From the NCBI GenBank assembly GCA_000004985.1, contig GG738878.1: 64,000 nt of DNA, one strand, 5' to 3'. Under the pieces are notes generated by a model that was given only the letters and a program-made list of their open reading frames with translations, searched no databases and was not told the origin of the DNA. The position numbers and the translations under genes are program-made. The first letter of the stretch is position 1. Each line of letters opens with the position of its first letter. Source of the DNA: Naegleria gruberi. Its lineage: Eukaryota. Below, piece after piece: positions 3,566-57,942 of the stretch.

Positions 3566-3579
3566 TTTGGCGCCAAAAA
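3566..3579. promoter_or_regulatory. Palindromic E2F/DP-type site TTTGGCGCCAAAAA, about 65 bp upstream of the smc5 ATG
   Basis: Exact match to the TTTSGCGCSAAA E2F consensus (DHFR-type palindromic site). One of four GGCGCC-core occurrences in the 64-kb window, each sitting 5' of a gene start. Confidence 0.5.
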
Positions 3580-3640
3580 TCACTTCCATCAAGTAGTGGA
3601 TGCAAAACTAAAAGGCTTGTCTTTGAAACGTTAAAAAAAA

Positions 3641-6600
3641 ATGCCTGCACGAAAGAAGCCTTCTTCGTCGTCCTCTCAGAGCAACAATAACAACAACAAA
3701 CGGAAGAGAAAGGACGATGTGTCATCAGATGAAGAAGAATCGGATCATGAAGAATTAGCATCACAACCATTAACAGCAAATGGAACTAAAAAAACAAAAC
3801 CAAATTCAATTTGTGGTTATCAATTACCCAAGATGAGAGATGGTAGTATTGTTAGAATCAAAATACATAATTTCATGACTTATGATGATTGTGAATTCTT
3901 CCCTGGGCCTGGTTTGAACTTGGTTTTAGGTCCTAATGGTACAGGTGAGTTTCAACTAATAATAATATTGAATAGTTTAATCAAATCATCAATTAACAAT
4001 TTCATCAAATTAACACTTATATTATTGTCAAATAATCAACAGGTAAAAGTTCAATTGTTGGAGCTATTTGTGTTGGATTAGCTGGTCACACTAAATTACT
4101 TGGAAGAGCTAGTAGAGTATCAGATATGATTAAACATGGCAAATCTGAAGCCTTTGTTGAAATTGAATTAAAAGCAGCAAAGAAAAATGTTGTTATTAAA
4201 AGAAGTTTTCATCTCAACAAGGACAATAAGGAGTCAACAGATTGGAGAGTGAATGGTACTAAAAAAACAGGAGAAGAAGTTAGAAATATAATTGAAGGAT
4301 TTAATATTCAATTGGACAATTTGACTCAATTTTTACCTCAAGAAAAAGTTTGTGAATTTGCAGCCTTGGATTCTACACAAAGACTTGAACAAACTCAATT
4401 AGCAGTTTTATCACCTGAAATTATTCAACATCAACAAGATTTAATTAAGAGACAAGATGAATTTAAACTTAGTAGTAATCAATTAGATACATTAACAAAA
4501 CAATTGGAAGGTCTTAAAAAGAAGAATGCTACATTGGAAAAGGAAGTTGAAAAATATAATCAAAGAAAGAAATATCTTGATGAAGCAGAACTTTGTAAAA
4601 TCAAAATGCCTGTACTTCAATTTAAGAATATTCAAGAAAGAGGAAAACAATTGAAGGAAATGGAATCTAAATTAGCTCAAGAAGTTGCAAGTCAACAACA
4701 AGAAGTTGGTCCACTTAGAGATGTTATGGAAGAATTGGATAGATCCATTAAAAAAACAGATTCTGATATGAGAACTGATAGAAATCGTATTAATACTAAT
4801 AAGGAAAAAATTTCCAATGTCATTCAAAAATTTGCAACATCCAATAATAATATTGAAAAATATTCAATAGAAATTGAAAAAGCAAAACAAAGTGAACATG
4901 CTAAACAATCTAAAATTCAAAAATTAGATCAACAAATCAAACAACTTGAAACACATTTATCAAAATATAACATTCCAGAAATTAAAGGGAAAATTCAAGA
5001 GAAGAATAATGAAGCACGTGATCAAGATGAAGAATATCGTAAAATTATGGATAGAAAATATGAATTGAATGAATCATTCAAATCCAAGAAGGAAGAAATG
5101 GAAGAATGTAAACGTAAAATTCATAAATTAGACAATGTAAAAGAACAACGTTTAAGAAGACTCAGAGAAAATAGATTAGAACAAGTTGTTAGAGTTTATG
5201 AATGGTATATGCAAAATAGAAGTCAATTTTTAAAACCAATTTATTGTATTCCACTTGAAATTGCACCAACAACACCTTTATTTGGTTCATTTATTGAAAT
5301 GCATTGTCCTCAATATGTTTTTCGTTCATTTGTAACACAATGTATAGAAGATAGAGAAAGGCTACAAAAATATGCAACAGAAAATGAATTAAGATTATCA
5401 ATAATTTTACCAGATAATTTAGAATATCATCCAACAAGAGTTTATCCAACAGATCAATTGAAACAATATGGTTTTATATCATATTTAGATGAACAATATA
5501 CAGCACCTGATGCTGTTAAATCATGTATCAAAGATTTAACTCAAATGGATACAGTTGCAGTTTCAGAAAATCCAAATGCTAAAGTTTCAGATTTATTAAT
5601 GAAAAGTCCAATTCAATGTGCATTTATTCCAAATCAACAATATTTAATGAAAACATCAACATATGATAGATCAAAATCTACAAGAGTTGTTGATGTAAAT
5701 CCAGCACGTGTTTTCTTACCTATGGATTTATCTGAAAAGGAAAATTTAGAAATGGAATTAAAATCACTAGCCAATGAAAAACACAAAATTGAAACCGATC
5801 TTAATCAATTAAAAGAATTGGAAGTTTCAATTTCATCTAAAATTGAAATGATTAGATCAGAAAAAAGAGCCTTNNNNNNNNNNNNNNNNNNNNNNNNNNN
5901 NNNNNNNNNNNNNNNNNNNNNNNNNNNNNNNNNNNNNNNNNNNNNNNNNNNNNNNNNNNNNNNNNNNNNNNNNNNNNNNNNNNNNNNNNNNNNNNNNNNN
6001 NNNNNNNNNNNNNNNNNNNNNNNNNNNNNNNNNNNNNNNNNNNNNNNNNNNNNNNNNNNNNNNNNNNNNNNNNNNNNNNNNNNNNNNNNNNNNNNNNNNN
6101 NNNNNNNNNNNNNNNNATATGCTCTTAATTCTTATTCACAAAGAATGATATTTCAATAGAAGAATTGAGAGATCGTTTAGCTTCACTTCCAGAAACAGAA
6201 GAAGAATTAACAGAAAAGATTGATTTTTATTTAAATGAAGCAGAAAAGATAACAGCTAATGCTTCAGTTTTAGATGAATATGCTAAAAGATTACGTGAAA
6301 TTGAAGAAAAGGAAAATCAAATTAAAGAATTAGAAAATGCCTCTGAAACAATAGCAGGAATAGTTGAAGAATTGAAAGAGAAATGGTTAAAACCATTAAG
6401 AGAATGTGTTACAAAAATTAATGATACATTTACAGAATATTGTAAACATGTTGGTATTGCAGGAGAAGTAACACTAGTTGGAGATGAAAATAATTTTAAA
6501 TCATTTCAAATTGATATTAAGGTTAAATTTAGAGATTCTGAAAAATTAACATCACTTTCAGCACAACGTCAATCAGGTGGTGAAAGATCAGTTACAACAA

Positions 6601-6926
6601 TTTTATATTTATTATCACTTCAACAATTGAACAAATCACCTTTTAGAGTTGTTGATGAAATTAATCAAGGTATGGATCCACAAAATGAGAGAAAGATTTT
6701 TTATCAAATGTTAGATTCAAGTCAAGGTGAAGATATTCCTCAATCATTTTTAATTACTCCTAAATTATTACCTGATTTGGTACCTAATAACGCTAACAAT
6801 ATTACTGTAATTTTCGTTTTTAATGGTCCTGCTAATATTTCACAAGATGAATTTGCCAAGTTTTTCCAACCTTTTGATAAAAGTATGGAAATCAAAGGTG
6901 AATCATCAAGAAAAAGTGTAAATTAA
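3641..6926 (+). CDS. smc5: Structural maintenance of chromosomes protein 5 (SMC5)
   Basis: Exon 1 is 3641..3944 and ends in the Walker A motif GPNGTG; a GTGAGT donor follows. The intron is 3945..4042 (98 nt, AG at 4041-4042). Exon 2 starts at 4043 (...KSSIVGAICVGL) and is in frame with ORF 4126..6159. Long coiled-coil arms follow. The C-terminal head carries the SMC signature LSAQRQSGGERS and Walker B VVDEINQGMD, which is SMC5-specific (DEINQGMD). An assembly gap at 5874..6116 interrupts the CDS. A possible further intron ends at ...ttcaatag 6159. Stop TAA at 6924-6926. Confidence 0.85.
5874..6116. other. Assembly gap (243 N) inside the smc5 coding region
   Basis: Run of N characters. The reading frame across the gap is undefined. 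Confidence 0.99.
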
Positions 6927-7116
6927 AATGTAAATAGAAACAGTTTGTCTGTTTTTTAATTGATTTATTCAATTCCATAAAATAATATTATTTAATAATA
7001 TAAATATATTTGTTAAGAAGTTTTAATTGATTTATTTATTCAATTCATCAATTTTTGTTATATATTTGAGTTTGTATGTACACATTGTGTTCATGAAAGT
7101 TAAAATTGAGAAAAAA

Positions 7117-7587
7117 TTAATTTTTTGGAACAAGACCACCACTTGATACACCAGTAGAACCAAATCCACCAGCACCTCTCGATGTATCATCCAAATCATC
7201 AACCTCAACAATTTGTGGTAATGCAATCTTTTCAATAATGAATTGAGCAACTCTATCACCACGTTTAATGACAAAATCTTCCTTTCCATGATTGAATAAA
7301 ACAACACCTAAATTTCCTCTATAATCAGAATCAACAACACCTGCACCAGTGTCAATAAAATTCTTCAAGGCTAATCCAGAACGAGGTGCAACACGTCCAT
7401 AATAACCATGTGGAACAGCTACGGCCAAGTCAGTCTTGACAAGTAATTTATCATGGGCTGGAACAATGTAATCATAGGCTGATGCCAAGTCATATCCTGC
7501 TGCAAATTCTGATGATCTCACAGGGAGAATGGCATGTTCCGAAAGTTTCTTTACACGAAGTTCTGTTGGTTCTGGGAATGAAGTCAT
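7117..7587 (-). CDS. dut: Deoxyuridine 5'-triphosphate nucleotidohydrolase (dUTPase)
   Basis: Single-exon 156-aa ORF carrying all five dUTPase motifs: AAGYDL, PRSGLA, GVVDSDYRGN, GDRVAQ and a C-terminal RGAGGFGSTG. Confidence 0.9.
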   Translation of the reverse strand: MTSFPEPTELRVKKLSEHAILPVRSSEFAAGYDLASAYDYIVPAHDKLLVKTDLAVAVPHGYYGRVAPRSGLALKNFIDTGAGVVDSDYRGNLGVVLFNHGKEDFVIKRGDRVAQFIIEKIALPQIVEVDDLDDTSRGAGGFGSTGVSSGGLVPKN

Positions 7588-7646
7588 TTTTTTTGAATTT
7601 AACTTGTGAATTTAATTTTCAAAGTTTAACGATTTTTGGAGGCAAA

Positions 7647-7657
7647 TTTTGGCGCCA
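7647..7657. promoter_or_regulatory. E2F/DP-type site TTTTGGCGCCA, about 60-70 bp upstream of the dut start codon on the minus strand
   Basis: GGCGCC core flanked by a T-run, located at 7647-7657 in the dut 5' region between the dut and upf2 genes. Confidence 0.5.
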
Positions 7658-7855
7658 TGTCAACCATGAAAAGAATGAGACAATATAAATTGTTAATGTT
7701 TAATTTATTAATAAACATTAATACCAACCTAACTGGTTATTGTCGTTCAATCTAGATTGTTCTTCAACTCTTGAGATTTATCAAGCATTTGGTTTTATCC
7801 AAAATTAAATCACTTGCAAATTTGTTTGACAATATAATTCAATATATCATCAAAT

Positions 7856-10390
7856 CTATTGAGTAGTGTTATTGTTGTTTGAATCTTTTCTCAATAATTT
7901 TGTAACATTGGCAGCAACAAAAACTTCTTGTGCCTTATTAGTTCTACCTTGTTTAGAGAGAATGGTAATCTTTTGAGCCATTGGTGGTGGTGGTGATGAT
8001 GATGATGTATTTGTACTATCATGTTGAGCATGTTGAGCATGTTGAGTGTGTTGAATGTGTTGTTGGTGATGATGATGATGTGCTGGTTGTTGATGATGAA
8101 TTATTTTAGGTGTAATAGCTTGTGTCATCATTTCTTGTGGTTTTGAAATCAATGTACCCATCTTGACAATATTATTATTGGTCAAGTATTTTCTCTCATT
8201 AATACTTTGATTAATCATTTCCATTAATTCCTTATCCAATTCACCTCCATCATCATCTTTATGTGTTGATGATTTAGAGTTGTTTTGAGAATCTTCAGTT
8301 TCATCTTGAACAACATCTTCCTCTTCAGCAGCAGCAGTTGCAGAAAGTTCATCCTCATGATCATTAATTGGCCATAGTGAAAGTGGATCATTGGATTTAC
8401 TTTGACCTGGAAGTGGAATTGGTTTCTTTTGTTCAATATAATCAATTTTATCAACAACTTCCTTCAAATTCTTTGGCCATTTCAATTTAGGTCTAACTGT
8501 ATCCAAAGTATCTGCTAACATATTTTCCATATCGACTGGTAAACGATACTGTTTACTTAAAACATATCTCTGCAAATATAATAAAAATCTATCTAATTTC
8601 TTTCTATCGGCAGATGTTTCAAAATAAGGACCACATGTATCTAGAAGAGTACAAACTAATCTCAATCTAAAAGTATCTTGTTTGTGTGGAAGTAGTGGTG
8701 TTGGATATAAAATTAATGTGTACAATACATCCATAATGACATTAATATCTAATAATTGATAATTATAAAATTCACCCAAGAATTTGATATCAATAATTCT
8801 TTTTTGTTCAGATCTTAATCTAGATGGTATATATTCAGCATTTTGATTAATACCCAATTCAATATTATCAATATATTCTTGTTGAAGTGAATATCTAATT
8901 TCCTCTAATAAAAGATCAATAATAACAACACCAATTTCTTCATGATATCTTGATAAACCTCCTAAAACACTTGCCATTAAATGAATAGTACCAAATGCAC
9001 ATTCTCTTATATGTGATAGAATACTCTTGATAATATTTTTAATTCTATCAAAATCATCGTATGGAAGTTTTCTCAATTGTTTTAAAACAGTATTAATATT
9101 ATACTTGTTCAATTCTGATAAAAGTAAATGTAAAACATATTGTGTTAATTCATCATCTTCACCAAATACTGTTCTTGGTTTTTCAACTTCTTGATCAACA
9201 TTTACAACTGTATTATAATAGGCACTATCAATCATGGTATTATATTTTACATCTAGTACTTTAATATCTTTAATTCTCATCATTTTAGAAATTAATTCAA
9301 CCATTAATAAATGTGATGTAGATTGTGCATATAAATATCTTCCACAAACTTCAAGAAAATGACATGCAACATCAATATTATGATGATGAAATTGTGAAAG
9401 ACATTTCTTTAAAAATTCAATACCAGTCTCTTCTGGACATATTTTAAATAAAATTAATTCACCCAAGAATCTAATATTTTTAACTTTGGTTTCAATTTTG
9501 ATTTGATCTTGTTCTTCAAATAATTTGTTAAATTCTTCTTCTAATGATTGAACAAGTGATTTACCAACATCTTTAAAAAGTGGATTCAATATAGCAATTA
9601 ATCTACTATAATATGGTAATAATTCTAAACTTGTTCTATTAACACTAAACATCTTTTTAACTAATTTAGTTCTATTACCTTTTTGATTAAGATATTTTAT
9701 AGCCAATGTTGTTGCTAATTTATCAATAGGTGGTCTTTTAGGTAATTTATCTAATAAATCTTCCATAGAAACTATATTTTCTAATTCATTCTTATCATTA
9801 ATTAATGTATTAATATCAGGTATTTCTTCATAGAATTGTCTTGTTCTTTCATTTACAAATTTATCAATATTATCTGTGAGAATATCTTTTTTATCTTGTT
9901 GTTCTTTTTTAGCTGATAAATCTTCAACTTTAAGTAAAGCATCTTCAATATCTGATGGTATCTTGGATTGAAGAATGTCAGCAGCTCTTTATCAAAATAA
10001 AAATGTTAAAAATAATAACAATGTAAACATACTCTTTTGCTAAATCGTATTGTTTCTTCCATTGTTTCAACTTTTTCTTTTCCTTATCAAGATTTTCAGT
10101 ATTTCCATCATCAATATTTGTTGTAGCTGCTTGTTCATCTTCATTAATTTCCTTTTGTTTAGATCTTAAACGTTCACAAAGTGTTTCAAAGAATGACAAG
10201 AATTGTTCATTAATAAGTTTGTGTTCTGGTTCAGTGATAAAACATTTAGTAGCATCATAGGATTTTCCAATTAAAAAGTCATGTTGGAATTCTGTTAAAA
10301 AAGGCATTAAAATTGATGATTGTGAAGTTTTCTTATTGATTGTAATCTAATTAGTCCGAAAGAAGTTCAATTTTGAATATTTACACACAT

Positions 10391-10423
<33 letters not shown>

Positions 10424-10998: not shown

Positions 10999-11165
10999 TT
11001 TTTCATTATTTTTTTTAATTTTATTTATTTACTGATTATCTTTTGAAGGCTTTACTACTCAACATGTTGATAATTCATATTTTGTAATTGATTAAACTAC
11101 TTGATGATAATCCACAGAAGACTCAACTTGATAAAGGTGAACTATGAAGATGCAATTTAAAAAAA

Positions 11166-11996: not shown

Positions 11997-12287
11997 TTTG
12001 TAACATATATTGTAATAGTATTTAAATAATAATTCAATTCATTAATATTGTGAAAAGAATAAAAAGAAGCAGAAATATGAGAGAAACAAATTGATGCTAC
12101 ACAAAAGATGCCTCTTTAAACAGAGTACATACTTGAATATCTTCAGTACAATTTAATATCCTTTAGTTAGCCAATTCTTTTATTTCAATAACAAGGTTAT
12201 TTAATATTATTAATATTTTAAAATTACAATGACAGATATTTTTCAAAAATTCTTGTGCGATGAGGAAATGTCAAATCAAAAAAAAAA

Positions 12288-14470: not shown

Positions 14471-14637
14471 TACTAGCAACTACTGCAACTACTAGTATTG
14501 TATTATAAAGATGATAATCATCTATTTCTCCGTGTTAATAGTTTAGTATTTCAATATTATTATTAAGAGATACCTGATATCTTTTATAAAATTAATTTAA
14601 ACCTATTGTGATAAATTAGCAGTTTACCTTCCATAAC

Positions 14638-14653: not shown

Positions 14654-14707
14654 ATCGTTTTCGTGTTGACACACGTGTGAAAGAAAGATTTCAATATTCA
14701 TTAAAAA

Positions 14708-18728: not shown

Positions 18729-20691
18729 TTAAATCTTTGAAAAAACTTTTGAAATATCTCTTTCGTTTCTAATAAATTCATCAGTTTGTAATAAGTGTTG
18801 AGTTTGAGCTTGTTGCTCTAATACTCGTTTCATGACATTACTCAAATCATCGGTTTGTGTCTTGATAAATTGTAATTGTTCCATAATATCTTTAGAAATT
18901 AATTGAGGAACAATATTAGGATTATTCAAATCAATCTCACTATGGAAGAGACATTTTTCTAATTCAATATTCTTCTCTAATCTATTTAGAATGTTGTTAG
19001 TATAATTAATTATTATTACTTACACTTTCCCAATCATTAAATTCAATTCTAATTTTAATGCATGAATCTCCTTTTTAGTTTCATTAATAGTATGTCGTAG
19101 AGCTTCCGATAAATTTTGAGTTTTTAAAGGAGCTATATTCGAGTAATGAGTGAAATATTGATATTGACAGTACTTACAATTCGAAATAAAATTCTGAAAA
19201 TCATTTGATAAAATTGAATTCAAATCTGAATGTATCGAGTAGAGTGATGACGATACATCCTCCGAATTTGATAATTCTTCTTGTTGCTTATCAATCAACT
19301 GAATTTCACTCAATCTCTGATAATGGTATAATCTAGTTTCAAATCCTTGTAAAATTTCATTTAATTCAATTATTATACAGTTAATTAATAAATAGTCCTT
19401 ATAAATATTTGTATATTCCATATTAAAACATTCGTTTAACAACCTTAGAGTTGAATATCTTGTCAGTACATGATTAACTATCATGTTTAATTCTTCATTT
19501 CTTTTTTGTTCAAAATCTATTTTCTTAATATAATCTTGATTAATTACATTTACAGAATTCAATTCTGTTAAATCCTTTACCAGAATAGGTATATCATTTG
19601 TTATATATTGTAAAACAATTGATTTCAAATTAGCTACCTGTTTCTTAGTCTTTTCAATATTCTCAATTATTGTAGAAATATCCAAATGTTGATAATTATG
19701 TAAATGTTCTTTTTGATTATTTGCACTTTCTAATGATGCCTGTAACTTTTTATATGACGTTAAACTTGTTAAATATTGTTCCTCCGTTGTTTTATATCTA
19801 TATTAATGTGGTTAATATGATGATTGTTGATTATTATTGAATGAATACTCACATGGATGATAATCTGTTCAATTCCTTGGAGTGCTTTTCTAAATTATCC
19901 TCACCAGCATCATTTTCATTAAATTTATCCATTAATTGTTTCAGATTTTCTTCAACCATTCCATCATTTTCTAAATTCAATTCAGTTAAATTTAAGAGAG
20001 AATGATTAGAAAGCGCCTTCACATATTCTTCAACACTATTCTTAACTTGAGTCAGTATTCTAGTAAATTCCAAATTTTTCATTGAAATAGATTGAACATT
20101 CTTTAATTGTTTTTCTCCCAACTTTTCAAAATAATGTTTTAATTTATCTTTTTGAATTTTTTTCTTTTCTAATTGATTTTCCAGTATATCCAATTCTTCA
20201 TTCAATAATTCCAACTCCTTCTCTAAATCTTCAATAGGAGTTTCATCTTTATTTCTATAAAAATCATCACCCAATTCAAGTGCTTGTTCCAAATCATGTC
20301 CATGTAATATTCTTCCTTGTTTTTCCAATTCTTCAAACTCTTTAATTTCATTCTCTGTCAAGATCATGGATTCTGATTTAATAATATTACATAATTTTAA
20401 TATAAAACTTGTTGATGTTTCATTGCAATGAAAAATCCAATCAAGAACACTCGGGTCCACTGGTAAATTAAAGCCTTCTTCCTTTGATGAAGGATATGTT
20501 TCCAAATCACCATAATTCAACTTTCGTAATAAGAGATGAAGTAATTTCCCTTCCGAAGATGATGATGAAGATCCACTACCACCACTACCACTATTATGAT
20601 CAATAGCACCTCGACGAGACATTGAAGAAGAATTAAACTTTAACATTTTTTTGTTGGTGGAAATTGAATTAAATTTTGGCGGGAAAGTCAA
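18729..20691 (-). CDS. Coiled-coil protein of unknown function, 3 exons
   Basis: Exons are 20691..19852, 19797..19024 and 18981..18729. The donors are GTGAGT and GTAAGT and the introns are 54 and 42 nt. The three listed ORFs (19849..20691, 19020..19685, 18729..18929) join in frame. The product is predicted to be largely alpha-helical/coiled-coil with an N-terminal Ser/Gly-rich stretch. Confidence 0.5.
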
Positions 20692-20851: not shown

Positions 20852-22736
20852 ATGTCAACCGTAGAAAGATCGTTATCATCATCATCGGAACATGTGGATC
20901 CTATTCTACAAATAATTATTATGGAATTTACTCCATTGGTTGATGAATCGATTATTAGAGATTTATATTTGGAGAATGGATGTGATTTTGATAAAACTAT
21001 CAATGAAGTATGTTTTTTAATATTTTAATTATTATTCATCATTAAATATTGATGAATATGTTCATGATCATCAACATTCATACGCCAATTATAATGTCAT
21101 CAACATTCATAACAATTTAATGATCATCATTTAGTTATATTTCATCTTGTCATCTAATGATCCTTCTATTTCGGATATAGAATCCAATGCAGATTCTCTA
21201 AATAATATTTCTAATGTGGCAACATTTAGTGATAGTGATAATTATCAAGATTTTTCACTTCATTCACCAATTAATAGAGATGATGAAAACAATGTATTAC
21301 TACTTTACCATATGTTTAAAGATATTAAAAGTGGAGATGAAGATTTAATTGAAAAGGATTTTATTCAATTTTTATATGAAGAGAATGACAAGGATTTATT
21401 TCAAACTATGGAAGTATTACGTAGAGCATTATGTAGTCAATATGATGATATTTCTATTCCAGAAACTAGTGTAAATAATAATCAAAAACAACCTTCATCG
21501 TTATTTGCTGCAATTGAACGAAATAAGCCACTTAGTGAAATGGCACGAGAATTACCAGTGTATTTTATAGTAGAAGATGAACAAGAAAAGAAAAAGAAAC
21601 AAAAACAAAAGCAAAAACAGAAAACAAGCGAAAAGAAAAAGAAGGTTGAAATGGAAACTAAGGACAAACAACAAAAAATGAAACAATTATGTGAAATATT
21701 CCCAAATATTGACAGATCCATGATAGAATCTCAGTTAATTGCTAGTAATTTCAGTGTTGAAGAAGCTACCTTGTATATTTTAAATCAAACCACTAAATCA
21801 TCTGGTAATAATCAAAAGAAGAAACCTAGTAATAATGGTAGAGGTGTTGTAAGAAACGATTTACTTGTTGGTGGGTCTAGATGGAGTACTAATAGTGGCT
21901 CTATTTCTCCAACCTCTACTCCTAAGTCAAACCTCAGTTTGCAAATGAAAAAACAAAAATTATCCGATCTTATCAAAGGAAAGGGTGTATCTCTCGAGTT
22001 TGCAACTGAAATTTTTGCTCAATGCAATGAAAACTTGACCAATACCATTGAAACACTTGCAGAAATGTATCCTAATCAATTTAAGAATCAATCATCTAGT
22101 GAAGATTTACTAATCAAGCCAACTAGTCAAGAAGTTATCTATGGTACCACTATTGGTCCACAATCAGCTGTTTTACCATCCAATATTGTAAATGTTAATG
22201 AGAATAATTCTAGAAATCAATCAAGAATTGCATTGGATGAGCTTATGCAAAAGAGAAAGCATTTCCAACTACCTGACTTGGTTGACACTGAATCTAGTTA
22301 TTTGCAAGCATCTAATCAATATACAAAATTAAGAGATAAGTTTATGGAGCTTGCTGTCAGAGCACAACAAAATGGAAATTATGGATTGGCGACAAACTAC
22401 ATGTCTAAAGCAAGACAATACTCAATAATTGTTGAAAATTGTCATGATAGAGCAAATGAAATTTCAGTAAGAGAGCAAACAGGAGGAAAGATGATAACAA
22501 GGCCAAGAAATCTCGATTTGCATGGTTTGGTTTTACAAGATGCCTTGGAAACATTAGAAGAATTCCTTAACAAGATGAGAAATTCATGTGAGAAGGTTAA
22601 TATTATTACAGGTTCAGGAAAACACTCCAAGAACAACCAGCCTGTTTTGTTACCTGCAGTTAATCAATACTTGTTAGAAAATGGATATGATTTTAAACAG
22701 CTAGGAAAAGGTGTGTTCCAAGTTAAATTCAGATAG
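20852..22736 (+). CDS. CUE-domain and Smr-domain protein (yeast Cue2 / human N4BP2 / NONU-1-like candidate no-go-decay endonuclease)
   Basis: Exon 1 is 20852..21007 and encodes CUE-like ILQIIMEFTPLVDESIIRDLYLENGCDFDKTINE; a GTATGT donor follows. The intron is 21008..21134. Exon 2 is 21135..22736. A second CUE-like segment is LCEIFPNIDRSMIESQLIASNFSVEEATLYIL. The C-terminal Smr domain is LDLHGLVLQDALETLEEFL...VNIITGSGKHSKNNQPVLLPAVNQYL. A (AAACAA)n-encoded KQKQKQ tract lies at about 21600. Confidence 0.7.
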
Positions 22737-24439: not shown

Positions 24440-26148
24440 ATGTCATCATACAACAACAATATAAATTCACCACCTCAAACACCAGGTGATCTAAATAGTT
24501 CCTTTATTGAAGATTATGATGAAATTGAAGAATTTCATGAAGAAATTAATGTTCAATCATTTTCACCTGCCATCCTTCAAACGTCACCTTCATTTAAAAC
24601 TCCTAAACAAGTTTTAATATCATTAAATAATTTAAATGATGATCAAAAACCAATCATTGATGAATTTATTGAAATGAATAAGAAATTAAAATATCACAAA
24701 TTTGATCAATTTGAATTGGGTGATGAATATGGTGGAATGAAATTATCACTTCCAACCAATATTTATAAACCTATTTTTACAAATGAAAAGACAGGTGCTG
24801 TTAAAGTATTAGGTATGTTATATTCTATATTGTAATGAATATTTAATATTTAATAATATTGTAATTAATATTTAAAAATATTGTAATGATGGGTAATGAA
24901 AAAAAATACATAAAAAATAGGAAAAGGATCATTTGGTGTTGTGATTGAATGTTTAGATATTGAAAGAAATGAAAAAGTAGCCGTAAAGAAATGTATCAAT
25001 GCTCTAAATATTGCACCGTGGAATATTATAAGAGAAATTGAATGTATGAAACATTTACGTGGACATCCAAATGTCATTGAACTCATTGATGTATATATTG
25101 ATTATAATAGTTTTGATAATGAGAATTCAGATATTTATGTTGTAACTGAATTGTGTGGAAAGACAATGTGGGAATATTTGAATGAAAAAACATTTCCCGC
25201 CAATTTTATTACAGAACAAGAAATTAAGAATTTAATGTCACAATTGTTATCTGTTTGTGTTTTTATGCATAGTGCTGATATTTTACATAGGTATGTTTAA
25301 TATTTATTCAAATATTTACAAAAATTATAATATTGTAAAATTATAATATTGTTGTAAAATATTTAGAGATATTAAACCAGAAAATATTTTAATGAAAGGT
25401 GATAGAATTAAATTAATTGATTTTGGATCTGCAACTAAATGTAGAGAACAACAACAAGTTGAACATATGGAATCAGTTTATGTTGTCACTAAATATTATA
25501 GACCTCCAGAAGTAGTTTTAACTTCTGATCAACAATCTCCTGCCATTGATTTATGGTCAATTGGTTGTGTATTTGCTGTAAGTAGTACTACTTGATTGAA
25601 TAATTGCGAACACTGTTTTGAATGGTGTTTGTTACTCATTCATTCTTTAAAAATAATAATAATAGGAATTACTCTTTTTACTTGAAGATCCACCATGTAG
25701 ACAACCATTATTCTTTGTTAAAAACTCTGGAATGTTAAGTGTTAAAGAACACTTGATGAAAATTATTGCAATTTGTGGTAAACCAGCTCCAAATGAAATT
25801 ATTGCAAGTGAACGTGGAATGGAATTCTTCCAAAGTTTATTAACAAAAACCAATCAACCAAAAGTACCACTTGAAGCAATCTTTGTAAATGCATCACATG
25901 AAGCTCTAGATTTATTGAGTAAATTATTAACATGGAGTCCTAAGAGACGTATTACACCTGAAGCTGCTCTTCGTCATCCTTACTTGAAGAATAACCCATT
26001 CATAGACACTAATAATGCAGATGAAGAATTCCAAATCAATTTGGTGTTGAACTCTGTCAAAATTACAGATCGAACTGAATCAAATAATTGGAAATTAACT
26101 CAATGGAAGAGATGTTTAAAGGAATTACTAATTGAATGGAATAACTAG
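24440..26148 (+). CDS. CMGC-group serine/threonine protein kinase, 4 exons
   Basis: Exons are 24440..24812, 24921..25290, 25367..25577 and 25666..26148. The introns are 108, 76 and 88 nt with GTATGT/GTAAGT donors. Splicing restores the Gly-loop LGKGSFGVV, the Lys in VAVKK, the catalytic loop H|RDIKPENIL, DFGSA, an activation loop YVVTKYYRPPEV, and DLWSIGCV. The stop TAG is at 26146-26148. Confidence 0.8.
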
Positions 26149-31931: not shown

Positions 31932-31975
31932 TTTTTACAAATTGTTTTTTATTCAACCACTACAGGCGGGAACAG

Positions 31976-31988
31976 TTTTTGGCGCCAA
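31976..31988. promoter_or_regulatory. E2F/DP-type site TTTTTGGCGCCAA in the divergent promoter. It lies about 45 bp upstream of the FAM184-like start and about 250 bp upstream of the 32236 gene.
   Basis: GGCGCC core with a flanking T-run and AA, same architecture as the sites at 3566 and 7647. Confidence 0.45.
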
Positions 31989-40233: not shown

Positions 40234-40254
40234 ATAATTTATTATTCGAATTCT

Positions 40255-43377: not shown

Positions 43378-44634
43378 ATGAAAAAACTTGACTGCTCTGT
43401 GCAAAATTATTCCTGGGGAAGAAAAGGAAGCGAAAGTACAGTTGGAATTTTGTACGCCAACACAATAGTGGAAGGAAAAATTGATGAACAAAAACCCTAT
43501 GCAGAATTATGGATGGGAACTCATCCAAGTGGCCCATCTAAAGTAAAATTAGATGATCAGTCAGGTTCGGAATTACTTTCTGAATTTTTAAAACGAAATG
43601 TAGAACAATACTTTTCAAAAGAGGAAGTGAATGAATTCTTTGAAAAGAAGGGATATGAATTTGCTTCATTACCTTATCTTTTCAAAATTTTATCTGTAAA
43701 TCAAGCCCTTTCCATTCAGGCCCATCCTGATCAGACACTCGCTCAAAAATTGTTCAAAAACGACCCAGAACACTATAAGGATCCTTACCACAAACCAGAA
43801 CTATGTTGTGCATTGACAAAGTTTGAGGCTCTTTGTGCATTTCAAAATTTGGAATCAATTGTGGAAAATATCAAAAATATTGAATCGCTCCAATCACTTT
43901 TGAGAGCTCAAAATAATGAATTAATTGACTCTATTCTAAGTAATGATGTAAAGGATTCATCTCAAGATGATAGAAAGATTATTTTGAAGAGTTTATTTAA
44001 AAGTTTGATGACATCACCAAAATCTCTCGTAGAAGCCCATCTTCCAAACCTTGTAAAGAACCTCCAAAATTCTACCTCATCCAGAGATCAATTAATTCTT
44101 AGACTTTACAAAGATTATGGAAATGATATTGGATGTTTCTCAGTTTATTTCCTTAACCATGTTGAGTTACAACCTGGGGAAGGATTATTCTTAGGTCCAA
44201 ACGAACCTCACTCTTATCTTTATGGAGATTGTGTGGAGTGTATGGCATCATCTGACAATGTTGTTAGAGCAGGTTTGACACCAAAATTCATTGATACTGA
44301 AACACTTATTGAAATGTTGACGTACGACGATCATGCATTAGAAAAGATGAAGATGGGTGGTGAAAAAGTCAACCAATTTGAAACTTTATATACCACACCT
44401 GTTTCAGAATTCAAGGTTCAAAAAATTGTCTTGTCTAAAGGGGATAAGTACACTCTTACTCCAAATGCTATTACTATTGCTATTGTTATCAATGGAAGTG
44501 GTTTAGTGAATGGTGAAAACTCCAAGAAAGGAGATGTACTTCTTTTCCCTTTTAATTCCAAAACAGATCTTGAAAATTCTCATGAGGAATCTATGGAAAT
44601 ATTTGCTGCTACAACTAATATTCAAGCTAATTAG
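43378..44634 (+). CDS. mpi: Mannose-6-phosphate isomerase (phosphomannose isomerase type I)
   Basis: ATG at 43378, with an open GTG upstream at 43351. MKKLDCSVQNYSWGRKGSES aligns with human MPI LSCAVQQYAWGKMGSNS. The zinc/active-site regions are LPYLFKILSVNQALSIQAHPDQTLAQKL, YKDPYHKPELCCALTKFEALCAF and LGPNEPHSYLYGDCVECMASSDNVVRAGLTPK. Stop TAG at 44632-44634. Confidence 0.85.
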   Translation: MKKLDCSVQNYSWGRKGSESTVGILYANTIVEGKIDEQKPYAELWMGTHPSGPSKVKLDDQSGSELLSEFLKRNVEQYFSKEEVNEFFEKKGYEFASLPYLFKILSVNQALSIQAHPDQTLAQKLFKNDPEHYKDPYHKPELCCALTKFEALCAFQNLESIVENIKNIESLQSLLRAQNNELIDSILSNDVKDSSQDDRKIILKSLFKSLMTSPKSLVEAHLPNLVKNLQNSTSSRDQLILRLYKDYGNDIGCFSVYFLNHVELQPGEGLFLGPNEPHSYLYGDCVECMASSDNVVRAGLTPKFIDTETLIEMLTYDDHALEKMKMGGEKVNQFETLYTTPVSEFKVQKIVLSKGDKYTLTPNAITIAIVINGSGLVNGENSKKGDVLLFPFNSKTDLENSHEESMEIFAATTNIQAN

Positions 44635-46112
44635 TCATATTCGAAAAAATCTGTGTTTGGCATTTCTGGCAAGCTTTCAGGTGCTTCATCATATGTTTCT
44701 TTTTTGATTTGAGTAAAGTTATTTGTGAATGTTAGAAATTTGTTGGATTGAACAGTTTTCTGATCCTCATGTTTTACTTTCTTTAACAGTTCATCAGTGC
44801 TTAATTGATTAACTGGAAAGTAAGAAATACACTTTTGTAGAAAGTGGGGCAAAGGCTTTCCACAACAAATGCAAAAGGAAGTAGATAACTGAGCTAAATA
44901 CTGGAAGAATTGATGCTCATTCTCTTTCCACGTTTGAAATTTTATATCTTCTCCTATCTTGAAATTTTTAAAGTAGTTCAAAGTCTTTTCAATATCTTCC
45001 AAGTATTTGAGATCATAGTTTGATGTGTTCATATTTGGAGAGTTTAAAAATGTTGAAAAGTTTTCAATATCTGAAATATAGGTTAAAAGAAATTTCTTCA
45101 AATTAAGTAAATGTTGAATTCTATCTAGCCTTTTCATTTCGCTTTCCTCTGTTTTAACTTGGACTGAAGATAGCAATAATTCTTGTATTTGAGATACTAG
45201 ACTTCTGAAGAATTGTTCAATCTTAGGTATCAGTAATTGACTAGCCAATAATTCACTTCGTTTTTTGTAAATAAATTCCAATCTTTGAATTTCTTCACTA
45301 CTGTTATTGTTTAATGTATTCGGTAGACTGTCTTTGCTTTTTTGTTTAATAAAATGAAATGTAAATGGTTTGATGAATGAGGCATTAGAATAAAGAAAAC
45401 TAGGGCTTTCAACTTTGGGGGAAGAAATGTTTTGGCTTCTCGAGTATGATGAAGATATAAATGGTTGGGGAAGGAGATTGCATGTTGAGACAGAAAAGTT
45501 AGATGTCTTATCAACAAAAGGAGGTAGGATAAAGCTGTTTAGGGATGGAGAATGATTTTGGGATGGAGAGTATCTTACAGGAGTAATATTAGATTCTGAT
45601 AACTGTTTGTAGTTACCATTGTTTTGTGGTTTAGCTTTAAGGGCAGTAGATTGTTGGGAAACAACATTACTGAAAGAGTTGGTTTTGAAATGAATTTGGA
45701 GAAGTGAGCGAGGTTGAGAGGGAGGAAGGTGTCGAATAAGAGCAGAATTAGGTGTTGTAGGAGTGTTTGGGTTAATCATTTTCGATGACGATGATGGAGA
45801 GGTAAAACTGGAAATGTTGTTGTCATCTCGTGGAGGAATGAGTACTTGTAATTTCTTTTCCTCCAGAAATGAAGCAGAAAGTTTTTGTTTTTGATAGCTC
45901 CCTACTGTATTTTCAGTCAATTTCTTATCAGGACTTGTGTTATTCGTGAATAAGTCCCCTCCGCTCGCATGCATGTTACTGTCCACTTCACTGCAATCAT
46001 TAAATTCTAACATCTTCTTCCAAGATGTGATTGATCCACTATCTGTTGATGACTTATCATAAAACTGATTGTTGGGCGAATTACTTTCCGTAGATGTGTA
46101 TGGATTGTACAT
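44631..46112 (-). CDS. Hypothetical Ser/Asn-rich protein (493 aa)
   Basis: Long minus-strand ORF. Its TAA stop (plus-strand tta at 44631-44633) overlaps the mpi TAG at 44632-44634. The C-terminal half has predicted helical and Cys-containing segments (CICCGKPLPHF). No family recognised. Confidence 0.4.
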   Translation of the reverse strand: MYNPYTSTESNSPNNQFYDKSSTDSGSITSWKKMLEFNDCSEVDSNMHASGGDLFTNNTSPDKKLTENTVGSYQKQKLSASFLEEKKLQVLIPPRDDNNISSFTSPSSSSKMINPNTPTTPNSALIRHLPPSQPRSLLQIHFKTNSFSNVVSQQSTALKAKPQNNGNYKQLSESNITPVRYSPSQNHSPSLNSFILPPFVDKTSNFSVSTCNLLPQPFISSSYSRSQNISSPKVESPSFLYSNASFIKPFTFHFIKQKSKDSLPNTLNNNSSEEIQRLEFIYKKRSELLASQLLIPKIEQFFRSLVSQIQELLLSSVQVKTEESEMKRLDRIQHLLNLKKFLLTYISDIENFSTFLNSPNMNTSNYDLKYLEDIEKTLNYFKNFKIGEDIKFQTWKENEHQFFQYLAQLSTSFCICCGKPLPHFLQKCISYFPVNQLSTDELLKKVKHEDQKTVQSNKFLTFTNNFTQIKKETYDEAPESLPEMPNTDFFEYD

Positions 46113-47042
46113 TCCTTCTCAATGATCATATTGTGAGAGTATTTCAACAAGGTGTGTTACTTTGATTTTGATCCGAGTTGATATACAAGTAAATTTCAAT
46201 ACTTGTGCAATGGAAATATTAATTGATCAAATTAAATATTAATTTCGGTTAAAAGGTTTTCTTGTTGAAAATCCACTTCTAAACAATAAACTATTGCAAT
46301 AGATGTTAATTCTCTTTTCAAATATAATATTTGCACTAGATGAAAACAATAATAACTTGGAAGATGATCTGATCAGAAGAACTCTCACAACAACAATACT
46401 GTCAAAAAACAACAATTGGGTCACAGAGTAAGAAAACTTCTCAGATCTTATCTAGAAAACAGTAACTAACTACAAACAAGAAACTATTACAACAACAAGA
46501 GAATGAACACTCTTCACAGGGAGTTTAATGGTTTTTTTTAAGCGGAATGAACAAAGGCCTTTGTACGGTTCCTCCTTTCAATCTCTTCTTTTTGTGTCTG
46601 ACAAAGATCACAAACAAGGCTCTCTGAAAGAGCGAAAATTAAATTGATACTGTGTTGGTTAGATATTAAAATGAATGAGAGTACCCTGTTGTAGTTCAAA
46701 TGTTGGAAGGATACTTTTCTTACGATCTTACTTTGTCGATCTGTTGGATATCAAACAAAGATTGAGATCTTAATGTTATCAGTGTTTGAAAATTTGTAAA
46801 TCTAGATCAAAAGATATGTGAAGAAAGATTTGTTGGTCTCTTGATAGATCAAAATACAAAGCCCTAATTAGTGCGTTATCAACGTTGCCAATCATTTCTC
46901 TATGTTTGTACCTAAGGGTTTTATCTTGATTGGGTAATTTGAGGGTAATCTGAGATTTTGTATCTTTTCTTTAAATTTCATTGTAATCAATAGAACGAAC
47001 ATTAAGAACCAATTAATTTAAGTGAGCTCTATATTTTTCCAA

Positions 47043-48816: not shown

Positions 48817-48840
48817 TTTTTTAAATTGTATTCAAATTGT

Positions 48841-50142: not shown

Positions 50143-50362
50143 TTTTTATGATTGGTAAATAACTAATCTTTATTTGTTTGTTAAATAATACTTCTCGTCA
50201 TAATACCATGCGTATAATATTATATTTTTCGCAGCAGTAATCGAATTGAAAATCCATCAATCATCCCACAATCAAAGATGTTAAATCATCTCAAAAGTTT
50301 TGCTGTTTTCGAGGTAATAATGAAGTAATAAGGAAACAAATCTAGAGCTTTAATGTGAAATA

Positions 50363-52210: not shown

Positions 52211-52321
52211 GCAAAATTTCAGTAGGGCGGAGAAACATGGGCAAGAGCTTTTTTTGCACCTTTAAGGATGTTTCATTTAAGAACTGTACAATTTATTTTA
52301 CATTTTATTTGGGCATTGAAT

Positions 52322-54363: not shown

Positions 54364-54415
54364 TTTTTTTTGTGTTGAATTGTGATGGCTTGTATTGACG
54401 ACTTGAAGCTTTTTG

Positions 54416-55927
54416 ATGGTTTTATGTATTACAGCCTCTGCTCTGGCAGTTTGGTTGATAAAATTATGGATACAAACGAATGCCCAATTTGAAAAAATGA
54501 AACATGTGCCAGGAGCTTGGCAATTGCTTTCGTTTTCATTCTTTTATATTCCCTTCCTTTCTCCTTATAGTTATATTGGTAGCTATAACAATCTGGTCAA
54601 GGCTGTGGAAAAGTATGGAGACCCAATAACTAAAACATTCAGATTGACCACTTCTAAATCAAATTCTGTTTGGATTAGTGATCCAAAATTATTGAAAGAA
54701 TACTTCATTGCAAAGGCTCACAATTTCGAAAAGCCAAATTACAATGTGGCAGCCTTCTTTGGGGAAAATATTCTATCAGCACAAAACAATGAAAGTTGGA
54801 AGAAACACTTTAAAGTTTGTAATCCAGCATTTGGTCCAAAAAATCTCAAATATCTCTGTAAGGTTGCAGTAGAGTCTTGTAATTCAATGTTTGAGATGTG
54901 GGATAGAAGATGCGATGGTACAAACAATTGCATTCTCGAACATGATGACTACCCAAATTTGAGTTTGCAAATTTTGGGCTTGGCAGGTTTAAATATTGAC
55001 TTTGGTATCTATGCTGAGGAAGCAGAGGGTAAACAGTTCAGATTTCATATGGTAAATATGCAATCAGGAAGATCCATTATTTTAAAAATGTTCTTTGACA
55101 AAGAGTCTTTCATGTACAAACTCATTGGTAGAATTACTGGCATTTCACAATCTATTGAATTTTGCAGTAAATATTTGGATAAAATGATAGAGGAAAGAAA
55201 AGCTAAATTGAAGAATGAAGATTTCTGTGAGGCAGATGAAATGAGCGATATTTTGAGTCTGTTGGTGAAGGCTAATGTAATTGAAAATTCAATTTCTAAT
55301 GATGAACTCAAAAGTAACTCGATGGTAATGAGCGTTGCTGGCCATGAGACGACGGCGAACGCTTTGAGATGGGCCTCTTACTACATCTCAAAAAATACCC
55401 AAGTCCAAGAAAGGTTATGGAGAGAGATTGACGCCGTACTCAATGGAAGAAATCCTACCTATGAAGATTACCAATCTTTGGAATATGTAAATGCTGTGTT
55501 GTTGGAGACTTTAAGATTGTCTCCACCAGTCTTACACATGGGAAGAGTTGCTCTTAAAAATCTCACTTTGGGAGAGTATGAAATTAAAAAGGGAGTGTCT
55601 GTAATTCCAATGTTTGGATATGTACAGAGGAGGGAAGACATTTGGCCTAATGCTTCAGAATTCAACCCAGAGAGATTCCTTGATCCAGAGGTTAAGGCTA
55701 ATTATCAACACAACTTTACCTTTGCGGCTTTTAGCTTTGCAAATAGACAATGTTTGGGAAAGAACTTTGCATTGTTGGAGGCATGCATGATTTTATCCTC
55801 AATGATGCAAAAATATGAACTCAAATTATTGAATGATGAGGAAACAGATCCTATAGTTGCTGTACCATTTCCTGTTAATCGTCCTTCGAAGAACTTGAAA
55901 ATTCAATTGTCGAAGAGACACGATTAG
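54416..55927 (+). CDS. Cytochrome P450 monooxygenase
   Basis: The ATG at 54416 follows an in-frame TTG at 54413. The N-terminus is a hydrophobic anchor MVLCITASALAVWLIKLW. The helix I motif is AGHETTANALRW, K-helix is ETLRLSPPV, the PERF motif is FNPERF and the heme loop is FSFANRQCLGKNFALLEAC. An out-of-frame ATG at 54385 opens a 32-codon uORF-like frame. Confidence 0.85.
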   Translation: MVLCITASALAVWLIKLWIQTNAQFEKMKHVPGAWQLLSFSFFYIPFLSPYSYIGSYNNLVKAVEKYGDPITKTFRLTTSKSNSVWISDPKLLKEYFIAKAHNFEKPNYNVAAFFGENILSAQNNESWKKHFKVCNPAFGPKNLKYLCKVAVESCNSMFEMWDRRCDGTNNCILEHDDYPNLSLQILGLAGLNIDFGIYAEEAEGKQFRFHMVNMQSGRSIILKMFFDKESFMYKLIGRITGISQSIEFCSKYLDKMIEERKAKLKNEDFCEADEMSDILSLLVKANVIENSISNDELKSNSMVMSVAGHETTANALRWASYYISKNTQVQERLWREIDAVLNGRNPTYEDYQSLEYVNAVLLETLRLSPPVLHMGRVALKNLTLGEYEIKKGVSVIPMFGYVQRREDIWPNASEFNPERFLDPEVKANYQHNFTFAAFSFANRQCLGKNFALLEACMILSSMMQKYELKLLNDEETDPIVAVPFPVNRPSKNLKIQLSKRHD

Positions 55928-55940
55928 AAATTCATAGAAA

Positions 55941-56863
55941 TTAATGAAAGTGCAAGTATAATATTACTAAAGCACTGAGGAAAATCCACTTCCAAAAAGA
56001 TCCAAGCTGCATCTTCTTTTTCTGTTTCTTTTGTTGGTGTTGAATAATCTCATTTTCATCAAAAGGTATTCCATTATTATATTTAGCAGCATTTGTAGTA
56101 TCTCCAAGTCTTGAATAAGTGAGAGCAATAAATTGGTAGACTCTCTCCTCGTTAGATTTATCTAATTCAATAGATTTCAAGTAATCGCCAAGTGCTTGTT
56201 TGTATTTTTCCAGTTCAAAATATGAAGATCCTCTATTAATAAAGGCAGAGCTATTGTGGGCTCGAGCTTGATTGCCTCGGTGAAATCCTTGATGGCATTT
56301 TCGTACTCGCCATTTTGATGATATGCTGAACCTCTACTTAAATATGCTGTTGAAAACTTTGAGTTCAATTCAATAGATTTTGAAAAGTCCTCGATAGCTT
56401 TGAGGTATTCCTTACTTTCCAAGTGAACAACTCCTCTTCTACTGTAAATCAGATAATCAGGGCTTTCTTCAATTACCTTATTATAATCTTTAAGAGATTT
56501 ATCAGTTTCTCCAATCTCATAATACAAATGTCCTCTAATTGTGTAAATTAATATCTTGTTTGTTGAATTAAAGTCCAAAGCAAAATTAAAATCCGAAATG
56601 GCTTTCTCCTTTTCCTTCATTTCTAAATACACAAGACCTCTACTGCAATAAACATCACCATTTTTTGGTTTTAATTTGAGAGCTTCGGAATAGTCAGATA
56701 TTGCTTTTTCAAATTCTTTCAATTCAAAATATGAACTTGCTCTGTTGTTGAGAGCAGTAAAATTATTCTTATCAAATTGGAGGGCATGGGAAAATTCATC
56801 AATGGCTATTTTAAATTTTCCACTATTGTGTGCAGACAAACCGGCAAGGAGGTGTTGTTCCAT
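55941..56863 (-). CDS. Tetratricopeptide-repeat (TPR) protein with a C-terminal transmembrane tail anchor. The CDS is split by a single-base frame break near 56243-56250.
   Basis: ORF 56177..56863 has about six 34-aa TPR units, each with an ...ALNNRASSYFELKEFEKAISDYSEALKLKP... pattern. Near plus coordinates 56243-56250 the frame dies (...AIKLEPTIALPLLIEDLHILNWK...*). The +2 frame continues the TPR with RGSSYFELEKYKQALGDYLKSIELDKSNEERVYQFIALTYSRLGD and ends in the hydrophobic tail SFWKWIFLSALVILYLHFH* (ORF 55941..56180). One extra A in ttattaATAgagg (tta-aat-aga-gga) would restore a single frame. Confidence 0.55.
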
Positions 56864-56967
56864 TTGTTTAAATTAGTTTTATTAATAAAGATAACACAAA
56901 CAATAAATTGTAAATAAGAGAGTGTTTTAGATTGAACAGGGCTTAGTATTTTTTACGAACAATGTAT

Positions 56968-57040
56968 TCCCCCTTAGCTCAGTCGGTAGAGCGTCAGACT
57001 GTTAATCTGCAGGTCGGTGGTTCGAGCCCACCAGGGGGAG
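56968..57040 (+). tRNA. tRNA-Asn(GUU): tRNA-Asn (anticodon GUU)
   Basis: A 73-nt cloverleaf. The acceptor stem TCCCCCT pairs with AGGGGGA (57033-57039) and G is the discriminator. The D-arm is GCTC AGTCGGTAG AGC. The anticodon stem-loop TCAGA CTGTTAA TCTG(C) has GTT at positions 34-36 and U33. The T-arm is GGTGG TTCGAGC CCACC. There is no intron. Confidence 0.85.
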
Positions 57041-57925
57041 TAATGTTTTATTTTCAATATCTTAATTTATTGTTATTATTCATTTCTGTTTTCACTCCCT
57101 TGTAGTGCAGTCTGCCTTTTGGTGGAATGTTGAACCGAAAAACAATTTGAAAATTCATTAGAAGAAGCATTAATCTTATAAAAGGAAGGTAGTTGACTGT
57201 CCGTTTAAATACACTTGAATAGGATACAACTTTTTTTCGTTGTTTGTAACTTCATGGTTGACAATCAAAGTATTCGTGGACTCCACAACATTGGAAAGTC
57301 TTGGACTGGAAAATCTCTTATTGTTAGGCAGTGAAAATGACAAGAAGGCTTACCTGAAGTCTTAATTTCCTTTTTCCATACACCATCAATCTAATGCGTG
57401 ACAATGGATTCAACCAAACCCTCTGTTTTCAAAAACCTTTTCACACATTCACATAAATAAAAATCTTATAAACGAGCTCGTGGGATCTTCTCTTCATCCC
57501 GTTTCACCAGCTCTTTAAGATACATTCCCCATCTTCAGTACTATATTTTACAACAACAATTATAGCTAAAATCGCTTTAATTCATTTAGGAAGATCATTG
57601 GAGATTGTCCAACAACAGAAATATTTTTTAATTTTAATATTTATTTAATAATCTAAATTGTTAATATCCTGATTTAAACAAACACTTTTAAACTCGTTCA
57701 ATAATTTTTAGACTTGTAGTGAAGAGCAACTCACGTACAACTCCAACCAACATCTTATTTGAAAATCAAAAACGATACCGTACTCAAACAAATAAGGAAA
57801 AGTTGGCAAGAAATCATTTCGAACAACATCAAAATTGTATTTAATTACAACCTTTTGTACAGAGTTTCGTTTCATCAGTTTACACTCTATCGACATCACT
57901 CGACCCGATATAACTGAATTGTATT

Positions 57926-57942
57926 GTTGGCGCCATTTTTTT
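57926..57942. promoter_or_regulatory. E2F/DP-type site GTTGGCGCCATTTTTTT, about 525 bp upstream of the cyclin ATG
   Basis: GGCGCC core with a 3' T-run, matching the reverse complement of AAAAAAATGGCGCC. It lies inside the low-AT island 57041..58417. Confidence 0.45.

Follow-up and report, generated by a model that had tools for sequence, protein, structure and literature searches.

Short elements with the core GGCGCC or GGCGGG, found 5' of cell-cycle and DNA-metabolism genes in a 64,000-nucleotide stretch of the Naegleria gruberi genome (contig GG738878.1 of assembly GCA_000004985.1; the whole stretch is hereafter the window), appear from their sequence to be real cis-elements and, specifically, the E2F sites of a Naegleria cell-cycle regulon, a reading to which we assign a probability of roughly 70%. 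The sites occur far above chance, are promoter-proximal and recur at orthologous genes and at genes of the same pathway in other Naegleria, and the corresponding factors are encoded with intact DNA-contact motifs. This outcome is expected rather than surprising, as it follows from the known distribution of E2F, DP and RB proteins, and with respect to binding and expression it constitutes a prediction.

The window contains exactly four copies of the hexamer GGCGCC (at 3569, 7651, 31981 and 57929), compared with a mean of 0.21 in 100 dinucleotide-preserving shuffles of the same DNA, none of which reached four. A preliminary description of this stretch had singled out these four sites, and its count, strings and coordinates were exact, as was its estimate of roughly 70% AT (the GC content of the window is about 30%). 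The extended consensus TTTSGCGCS is matched at three of the four loci against an expectation of 0.03, the site at 57929 having TT only, and the relaxed form TTSSCGCS yields nine strand matches at seven loci against 0.39 expected, a count that again none of the 100 shuffles attained. Further TTTSSCGC matches at 20679 and 25193 and a TTSSCGC match at 31966 belong to three E2F-type sites beyond those previously described (20674-20686, 25193-25201 and 31965-31972). The excess is confined to the non-coding share of the window (about 29%), where GGCGSS-type hexamers number six against 0.45 expected under a first-order Markov model, an approximately 13-fold enrichment with a Poisson probability of 8e-6, compared with one such hexamer against 1.2 expected under the same model in the coding part.

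These counts bear on the simplest alternative, namely that the sites are chance matches devoid of function. In its favor are the low number of sites (seven over 64 kb, a coding one included) and the lack of a consensus site at several N. fowleri and Willaertia promoters of orthologous genes. Against it stand the shuffles, the Poisson estimate for the non-coding excess and the independent recurrence of the motif, described below, at promoters of orthologous and pathway genes of three other Naegleria species, so that we consider a chance origin very improbable. A repeat or transposon origin was ruled out by inspection, the flanks of all seven sites being unrelated.

With start codons compared with those of orthologues, five sites are found 32 to 67 bp from an ATG and one lies within a long ATG-free leader, these distances referring to start codons and not to mapped transcription starts. 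Site 1 (TTTGGCGCCAAAAA, 3566..3579) is located 67 bp 5' of the SMC5 ATG (3641, + strand), with the ATG of a divergent PI4K gene (2984, - strand), mapped by tblastn with the N. fowleri N-terminus, 585 bp away on its other side. The gene product matches solved SMC5 chains with E=9e-48 and SMC6 far more weakly; an assembly gap of 243 N interrupts its coding region at 5874-6116. Site 1 is the only full palindrome, TTTGGCGCCAAA. The preliminary description had regarded all four sites as this classical palindrome, which is accurate for site 1 but not for sites 2 to 4. Site 2 (TTTTGGCGCCA, 7647..7657; ATGGCGCCAAAATTT in gene orientation) is 64 bp 5' of the ATG (7587, - strand) of the dUTPase gene (7117-7587, - strand; Pfam E=1.6e-44), and it is intact in contig L001 of a second N. 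gruberi-type strain, drawn from an ENA metagenome, with 98.2% DNA identity.

The first of the additional sites (TTTTGGCGGGAAA, 20674..20686; TTTCCCGCCAAAA in gene orientation) lies 32 bp 5' of the first in-frame ATG (20646, - strand) of the gene for the augmin subunit HAUS3, which was identified by the Pfam family HAUS-augmin3 (40.3 bits against a cut-off of 29.4) and by comparison of its N-terminus with N. fowleri HAUS3. The FAM184 gene, whose N-terminus is kept across three Naegleria species, is preceded by two sites in tandem, 10 bp apart: an additional site (GGCGGGAA, 31965..31972; TTCCCGCC in gene orientation) 34 bp 5' of its ATG (31931, - strand), and site 3 (TTTTTGGCGCCAA, 31976..31988) 50 bp 5' of the same ATG and about 250 bp from the start of a divergent membrane-protein open reading frame (ORF; 32236, + strand). 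Both the FAM184 and the Cyclin_N matches exceed the Pfam cut-offs, and the SMC5, dUTPase, FAM184 and cyclin identities proposed earlier agree with Pfam and, for SMC5, with the solved chains. The remaining match (TTTCCCGCC, 25193..25201, + strand) falls within the coding sequence of a CMGC-type protein kinase (Pfam Pkinase; codons ..T F P A N..) and is probably fortuitous or non-functional.

Among the annotated genes of the window, sites accompany four of four cell-cycle or DNA-metabolism genes (SMC5, dUTPase, HAUS3 and the cyclin) and one of about 30 others, FAM184 (Fisher test, 1e-4, with gene classes assigned post hoc). The Pfam-annotated genes of the window for UPF2, RING, AP-mu, Ssu72, PQ-loop, UCH, DHHC, PMI, CCT, arrestin and amidohydrolase proteins are without a site, as are its WD40, P450, TPR and eIF3d genes.

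The base composition of the window offers a second alternative, in which the G/C hexamers are passive leftovers, that is, CpG-containing words that survive in promoters protected from methylation-driven decay and are recognized by no specific factor. CpG is indeed depleted overall, and less so in non-coding (observed/expected 0.56) than in coding DNA (0.36), with GpC at 0.83. This depletion across the window may relate to cytosine modification in the N. gruberi genome. The AT-rich, CpG-depleted background makes E2F-type sites conspicuous by eye. Since the shuffles keep the dinucleotide content, CpG included, the expectation of 0.21 already allows for the depletion. Among the 36 classes of G/C-only hexamers, moreover, only GGCGCC (four copies) and GGCGGG/CCCGCC (three) occur more than once in the window; both are E2F cores, most other classes are absent, and CGCGCG, CCGCGG, GCGCGC and CCCGGG have zero copies. 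The T-runs and A-runs at the sites complete the E2F consensus, and orthologous promoters with flanks that can no longer be aligned carry the same word, equally far from the gene. Hexamer specificity, consensus flanks and cross-species recurrence thus disfavor passive survival as well as chance, and we regard passive survival as very unlikely.

The site at the cyclin gene differs from the others in its placement. Site 4 with its conserved flank (ATTGTATTGTTGGCGCCATTTTTTT, 57918..57942, + strand) has its hexamer 532 bp 5' of the ATG (58466) of a gene (58466-59932) encoding a divergent protein with a Cyclin_N domain (Pfam). It is contained in an ATG-free stretch of 1,062 nt that runs up to this start codon (57404..58465, + strand). 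Neither strand of the window has a longer one, and ATGs are on average 50 nt apart; between site 4 and the start codon alone (531 nt) there is none, against about seven expected. The orthologous cyclin of N. lovaniensis is preceded by a 900-nt ATG-free run (contig L089, 5101-6001), and the cyclin A gene of an N. gruberi-type strain (contig L088) is preceded by at least 884 nt that are free of ATG (1-884), with GGCGCC at -820. From their sequence, these stretches are probably long 5' leaders in which upstream start codons are avoided. Because the ATG-free run surrounds it, site 4 would be positioned within the leader or close to its head, and not as a distant upstream element.

Two further observations are related. 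A run of 766 nt (46129-46895, - strand), second in length among those of the window that lack ATG, lies just 5' of an unannotated 493-aa ORF (44631-46112) and may be another long leader. In the cyclin A gene of contig L088, three E2F-like cores (GGGCGCCAAAA, CGCGGCAAAAAAA and TCCCGCC) are clustered within about 50 bp (1436-1481), about 550 bp 3' of the ATG. They fall within an in-frame segment of 444 nt, which is absent from the published 612-aa N. gruberi model and is either coding or an intron with regulatory sites.

Orthologous promoters were compared by anchored inspection and shared k-mers; MAFFT alignment misplaced the motifs, because the promoter flanks no longer align. The FAM184 promoter sites are kept in three Naegleria species, with the tandem arrangement preserved in N. 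lovaniensis (GGCGCC at -65 and CCCGCC at -38, contig L089) and TTTCCCGCC at -34 in an environmental Naegleria (JGI sample 3300002220). At the cyclin, N. lovaniensis has GGCGCC at -535 in ATTGTATTGcagTGGCGCCA, and the 9-mer flank ATTGTATTG stands at -548 in both this species and N. gruberi, in surroundings that share only scattered blocks. The dUTPase promoter of the environmental Naegleria contains GCGCCAAAA at -48 and TTCCCGCCAAA at -22. Contig L089 of N. lovaniensis holds three copies of GGCGCC in all, compared with 0.25 expected. The N. fowleri locus carrying HAUS3, dUTPase and SMC5 (L002) is devoid of both GGCGCC and GGCGGG over its 20 kb; its HAUS3 promoter has a near-consensus GCCGCC core, GCCGCCATTTT at -42. 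This locus has the same neighbors as positions 1-22700 of the window (HAUS3, UPF2, RING, CUE/Smr, dUTPase, SMC5 and PI4K) in another order and orientation, with the divergent SMC5-PI4K pair preserved.

A scan for dUTPase in metagenomes returned 80 loci, none of them from a close relative of Naegleria. A GC-rich contig from an unrelated eukaryote (L097, 25-65) carries TTTGGCGG and TTTCCCGCC 70 to 100 bp 5' of the ATG of a dUTPase that is 73% identical to that of the window; these sites fit dUTPase as a common E2F target, with the GC-rich DNA making the matches weigh less.

Comparable sites are present at genes of the E2F pathway itself. The gene for DEL, the atypical E2F of the E2F7/8 type, has two such elements in N. 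fowleri as well as in N. lovaniensis. One, at about -75/-85, is TTTTGGCGC in either species; the other, at about -205/-230, has a CCCGCC core and reads CTCCCGCC in N. fowleri and TTTCCCGCC in N. lovaniensis. The 22.5 kb examined in the latter species hold no TTSSCGC match apart from these two. In the environmental Naegleria, a divergent promoter of 100 bp separates a kinesin gene (ATG 594, - strand) from an apparent first exon of RB (ATG 694) and holds TTCCCGCCTTTTTTGCTCCCCGCCAAAAAA, that is, TTCCCGCC...CCCCGCCAAAAAA. The ORF that begins at ATG 694 (contig L095, 594-980), preceded by an A-run, ends at a GTAAGT donor-like sequence at about 976, 5' of the called RB gene. The environmental RB gene thus probably has an unannotated 5' exon, and the N. 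gruberi RB model, which starts with MVSLQF, may be truncated likewise at its 5' end.

In 93.7 kb of Naegleria DNA from species other than N. gruberi, 14 of 19 SSCGCS cores are intergenic, and a core is present in 9 of 12 cell-cycle-type promoters compared with 4 of 36 others (Fisher test, 7e-5); as the loci were chosen for their cell-cycle genes, this test compares genes with their own neighbors and is not genome-wide. Three further E2F-like words were seen on N. fowleri contig L006, where TTGGCGCAAAAA (19464-19470) lies about 11 bp 5' of an Elongin C-like gene, CGCGCG (20631-20636) abuts the ATG of a RING gene and AAATGGCGCCAAAA (21637-21642) is found 174 bp 5' of an unannotated gene.

Medina et al. 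2016 provide sequences of N. gruberi E2F, DP, DEL and RB among their source data (PMC4862756). According to Pfam, the E2F consists of E2F_TDP and CC-MB domains, DP of E2F_TDP and DP domains, and RB (P0121) of RB_A and RB_B; DEL of N. fowleri has two E2F_TDP domains. By inspection, the recognition helices read KRRIYDITNVLEGIGLIEK with RRIYD in E2F and RRRVYDALNVLMALNIISK with RRRVYD in DP, so that the RRXYD DNA contacts are intact. The C-terminus of N. gruberi E2F, DFMFEMESGEGVSDLFL, resembles by inspection the pocket-binding tail of human E2F1. The preliminary description had taken the DNA for that of a dictyostelid, and its dUTPase and cyclin are in fact 100% identical to Naegleria gruberi proteins (Heterolobosea, Discoba). 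The argument from dictyostelid Rb, E2F and DP therefore does not hold in that form, although N. gruberi does possess these proteins.

In animals and plants, canonical E2F/DP sites conform to TTTSSCGC, exemplified by TTTCGCGCCAAA in DHFR and by TTTCCCGCC in the plant PCNA, RNR and CDC6 promoters. The Naegleria sites share this consensus, including the palindromic form TTTSGCGCSAAA, and likewise stand near gene starts and often in tandem. Their target classes match the canonical ones (nucleotide metabolism, chromosome maintenance, cyclins, RB and E2F7/8), and the RRXYD recognition helices of the canonical factor are those of Naegleria E2F and DP. Naegleria differs in being a heterolobosean amoeba (Discoba) with an AT-rich, CpG-depleted genome, in which the sites are putative. 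For atypical E2F7/E2F8/DEL proteins, the site consensus is TTCCCGCCAAAA, and this long form is matched exactly by TTTCCCGCCAAAA at HAUS3 and by TTCCCGCCAAAC at the environmental dUTPase. Naegleria also resembles this system in having a DEL-type protein with two E2F_TDP domains whose own promoter carries E2F-type sites. Judged by sequence, a given site may be occupied by either family member, and DEL may be a repressor like its animal and plant counterparts.

One feature sets the Naegleria sites apart from canonical ones. In gene orientation, most of them read (G/C)(G/C)CGCCAAAA (SSCGCCAAAA), with the A-run on the gene side, an orientation bias that E2F sites are not known to show typically. 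It could indicate that the elements, although real, are read by another protein, either a Naegleria-specific factor or a core-promoter factor that recognizes SSCGCC with its A-run and has no link to RB. The degenerate N. fowleri versions (GCCGCCATTTT and TTGCGCC) would be compatible with such a factor, as they retain CGCC and not the full E2F core. Against this stands the correspondence of the elements to the textbook E2F and E2F7/8 consensus (TTTSSCGC and TTCCCGCCAAAA), as well as the unchanged recognition helices of E2F and DP. The site-bearing genes, RB and DEL among them, moreover belong to the classes that E2F controls elsewhere, whereas housekeeping genes of the window (eIF3d, CCT, PMI, AP-mu and others) have no site. 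We therefore consider recognition by a different factor unlikely.

Several observations weigh against assigning the elements to an E2F regulon. The gene-class statistics are post hoc, and the additional loci were picked for their cell-cycle genes. Among the associated genes, FAM184 is not established as acting in the cell cycle, and the cyclin is unclassified, with no match to any solved structure. The cyclin site is also placed unusually, since at 532 bp from the ATG it is part of an ATG-free leader that reaches 525 nt further upstream, and it may sit 3' of the point where transcription begins or function at the RNA level. The consensus match at 25193 falls in coding sequence, and in N. lovaniensis a GGCGCC (contig L089, 8522-8527, flanks AATAGGGCGCCAAAAAG) is found between the convergent Tmemb_14 gene and a 190-aa gene, off the annotated promoters; it could be a non-functional match or mark an unannotated transcript. 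The 270-bp SMC5 promoter of N. fowleri has no E2F-like core, its dUTPase promoter has only two one-mismatch variants (TTGCGCT and TTGCGCC, 11 bp apart), and the dUTPase promoter of Willaertia magna is without a comparable site. With sites lost or weakened at these three promoters, individual sites evidently turn over between Naegleria species.

Several statements of the preliminary description are narrowed by these points. That the motif is never found in a coding sequence is true of GGCGCC, but not of the related TTTCCCGCC in the kinase gene; that it is always 5'-proximal applies to the SMC5, dUTPase and FAM184 sites, and not to the cyclin, whose site lies in a probable long ATG-free leader and not in a conventional proximal promoter. 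SMC5 and dUTPase are cell-cycle or DNA-metabolism genes as described, whereas this is not established for FAM184 and is qualified for the cyclin by its divergence and unknown class. Conservation of sites is seen in the FAM184 pair, the N. lovaniensis cyclin and the environmental dUTPase, but does not extend to N. fowleri SMC5 and dUTPase or to the Willaertia dUTPase. The central proposal, E2F/DP sites beside cell-cycle promoters, retains the support of the consensus, the non-coding enrichment, the targets, the factors and the recurrence.

The promoters may contain further elements in addition to the E2F-type sites. In the promoters of SMC5 and dUTPase, TTTGAAA, which resembles the cell-cycle genes homology region (CHR) of animals, follows the E2F-type site 20 to 45 bp on its 3' side; in the DEL promoter it stands beside the CCCGCC site. 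This is reminiscent of the cell-cycle-dependent element (CDE)/CHR pair of the animal DREAM/MuvB system, from which the Naegleria arrangement differs in that its spacing is variable and not fixed at 4 nt. TTTGAAA is not present upstream of HAUS3 or FAM184, AT-rich DNA often contains TTTGAA, and the presence of TTTGAAA at three promoters passed no enrichment test. Adjoining TTTGAAA, between the E2F-type site and the ATG, CGTTAAA was observed in the SMC5 (3620-3636) and dUTPase (7615-7632) promoters; the dUTPase promoters of N. fowleri (L002, about 9950-9975) and the environmental Naegleria (L092, about 905-915) have CCGTTAA (TAACGG on the other strand, Myb-site-like) together with TTTCAAA. Across the window, CGTTAAA is not enriched (6 against 5.1 expected) and is at most a lead for a second element.

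In the literature searched, we found no report of an E2F cis-element for Naegleria or other Discoba and no published promoter analysis for Naegleria. In Dictyostelium, the RB protein RblA represses S-phase and mitotic genes, smc5 and mitotic kinesins among them (Strasser et al. 2012, PMC3386910). This mixture of S-phase and mitotic targets can be likened to the Naegleria set of SMC5, dUTPase, HAUS3, kinesin and cyclins, with the differences that Dictyostelium is an amoebozoan unrelated to Naegleria and that its regulon was defined by knockout expression and not by sites (PMC3386910). Neither dUTPase nor augmin was found in the examined part of the RblA target table (PMC3386910). For N. gruberi, mitotic upregulation of HAUS6, another augmin subunit, has been reported (bioRxiv 10.1101/2024.01.08.573270), which fits the inclusion of HAUS3 in a cell-cycle regulon as an indirect hint only.

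In the mechanism that we envisage, a Naegleria E2F-DP heterodimer, and possibly the two-domain DEL/E2F7-8 homologue too, would bind the GGCGCC/GGCGGG elements, which are about 20 to 75 bp from the start codons of DNA-metabolism and mitosis genes and, at the cyclin, within a long leader or at its head. If the scheme of animals, plants and Dictyostelium applies, RB would dock on the E2F tail at the C-terminus and keep these promoters off until phosphorylation by cyclin-CDK frees them, and the target genes would then be transcribed together before S phase and mitosis. The predicted regulon would comprise dUTPase for nucleotide metabolism, SMC5 for chromosome maintenance, HAUS3 and the kinesin for spindle assembly, the cyclins, and RB and DEL themselves.

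E2F, DP and RB are spread across eukaryotes and are therefore assigned to their last common ancestor, whereas a shared DNA code and shared targets are evidenced mostly in animals, plants and Dictyostelium. We tentatively suggest, at rather less than even odds, that the E2F cis-code and a core of targets (RB, DEL, dUTPase and SMC5) date to the ancestor of Discoba and other eukaryotes, and that the Naegleria regulon adds spindle genes (HAUS3, the kinesin and perhaps FAM184) as well as cyclins whose site-bearing leaders, 0.5 to 1 kb long and free of upstream ATGs, couple transcriptional with translational control. If the sites are what they appear to be, their occurrence in a heterolobosean would extend the evidence for a shared cis-code and shared targets to Discoba, and the ATG-free leaders suggest that cyclins may also be subject to translational control. 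The Naegleria amoeba builds microtubules for mitosis only, and a short motif with a set of candidate promoters would then provide a handle on how N. gruberi switches on this mitosis-only microtubule machinery.

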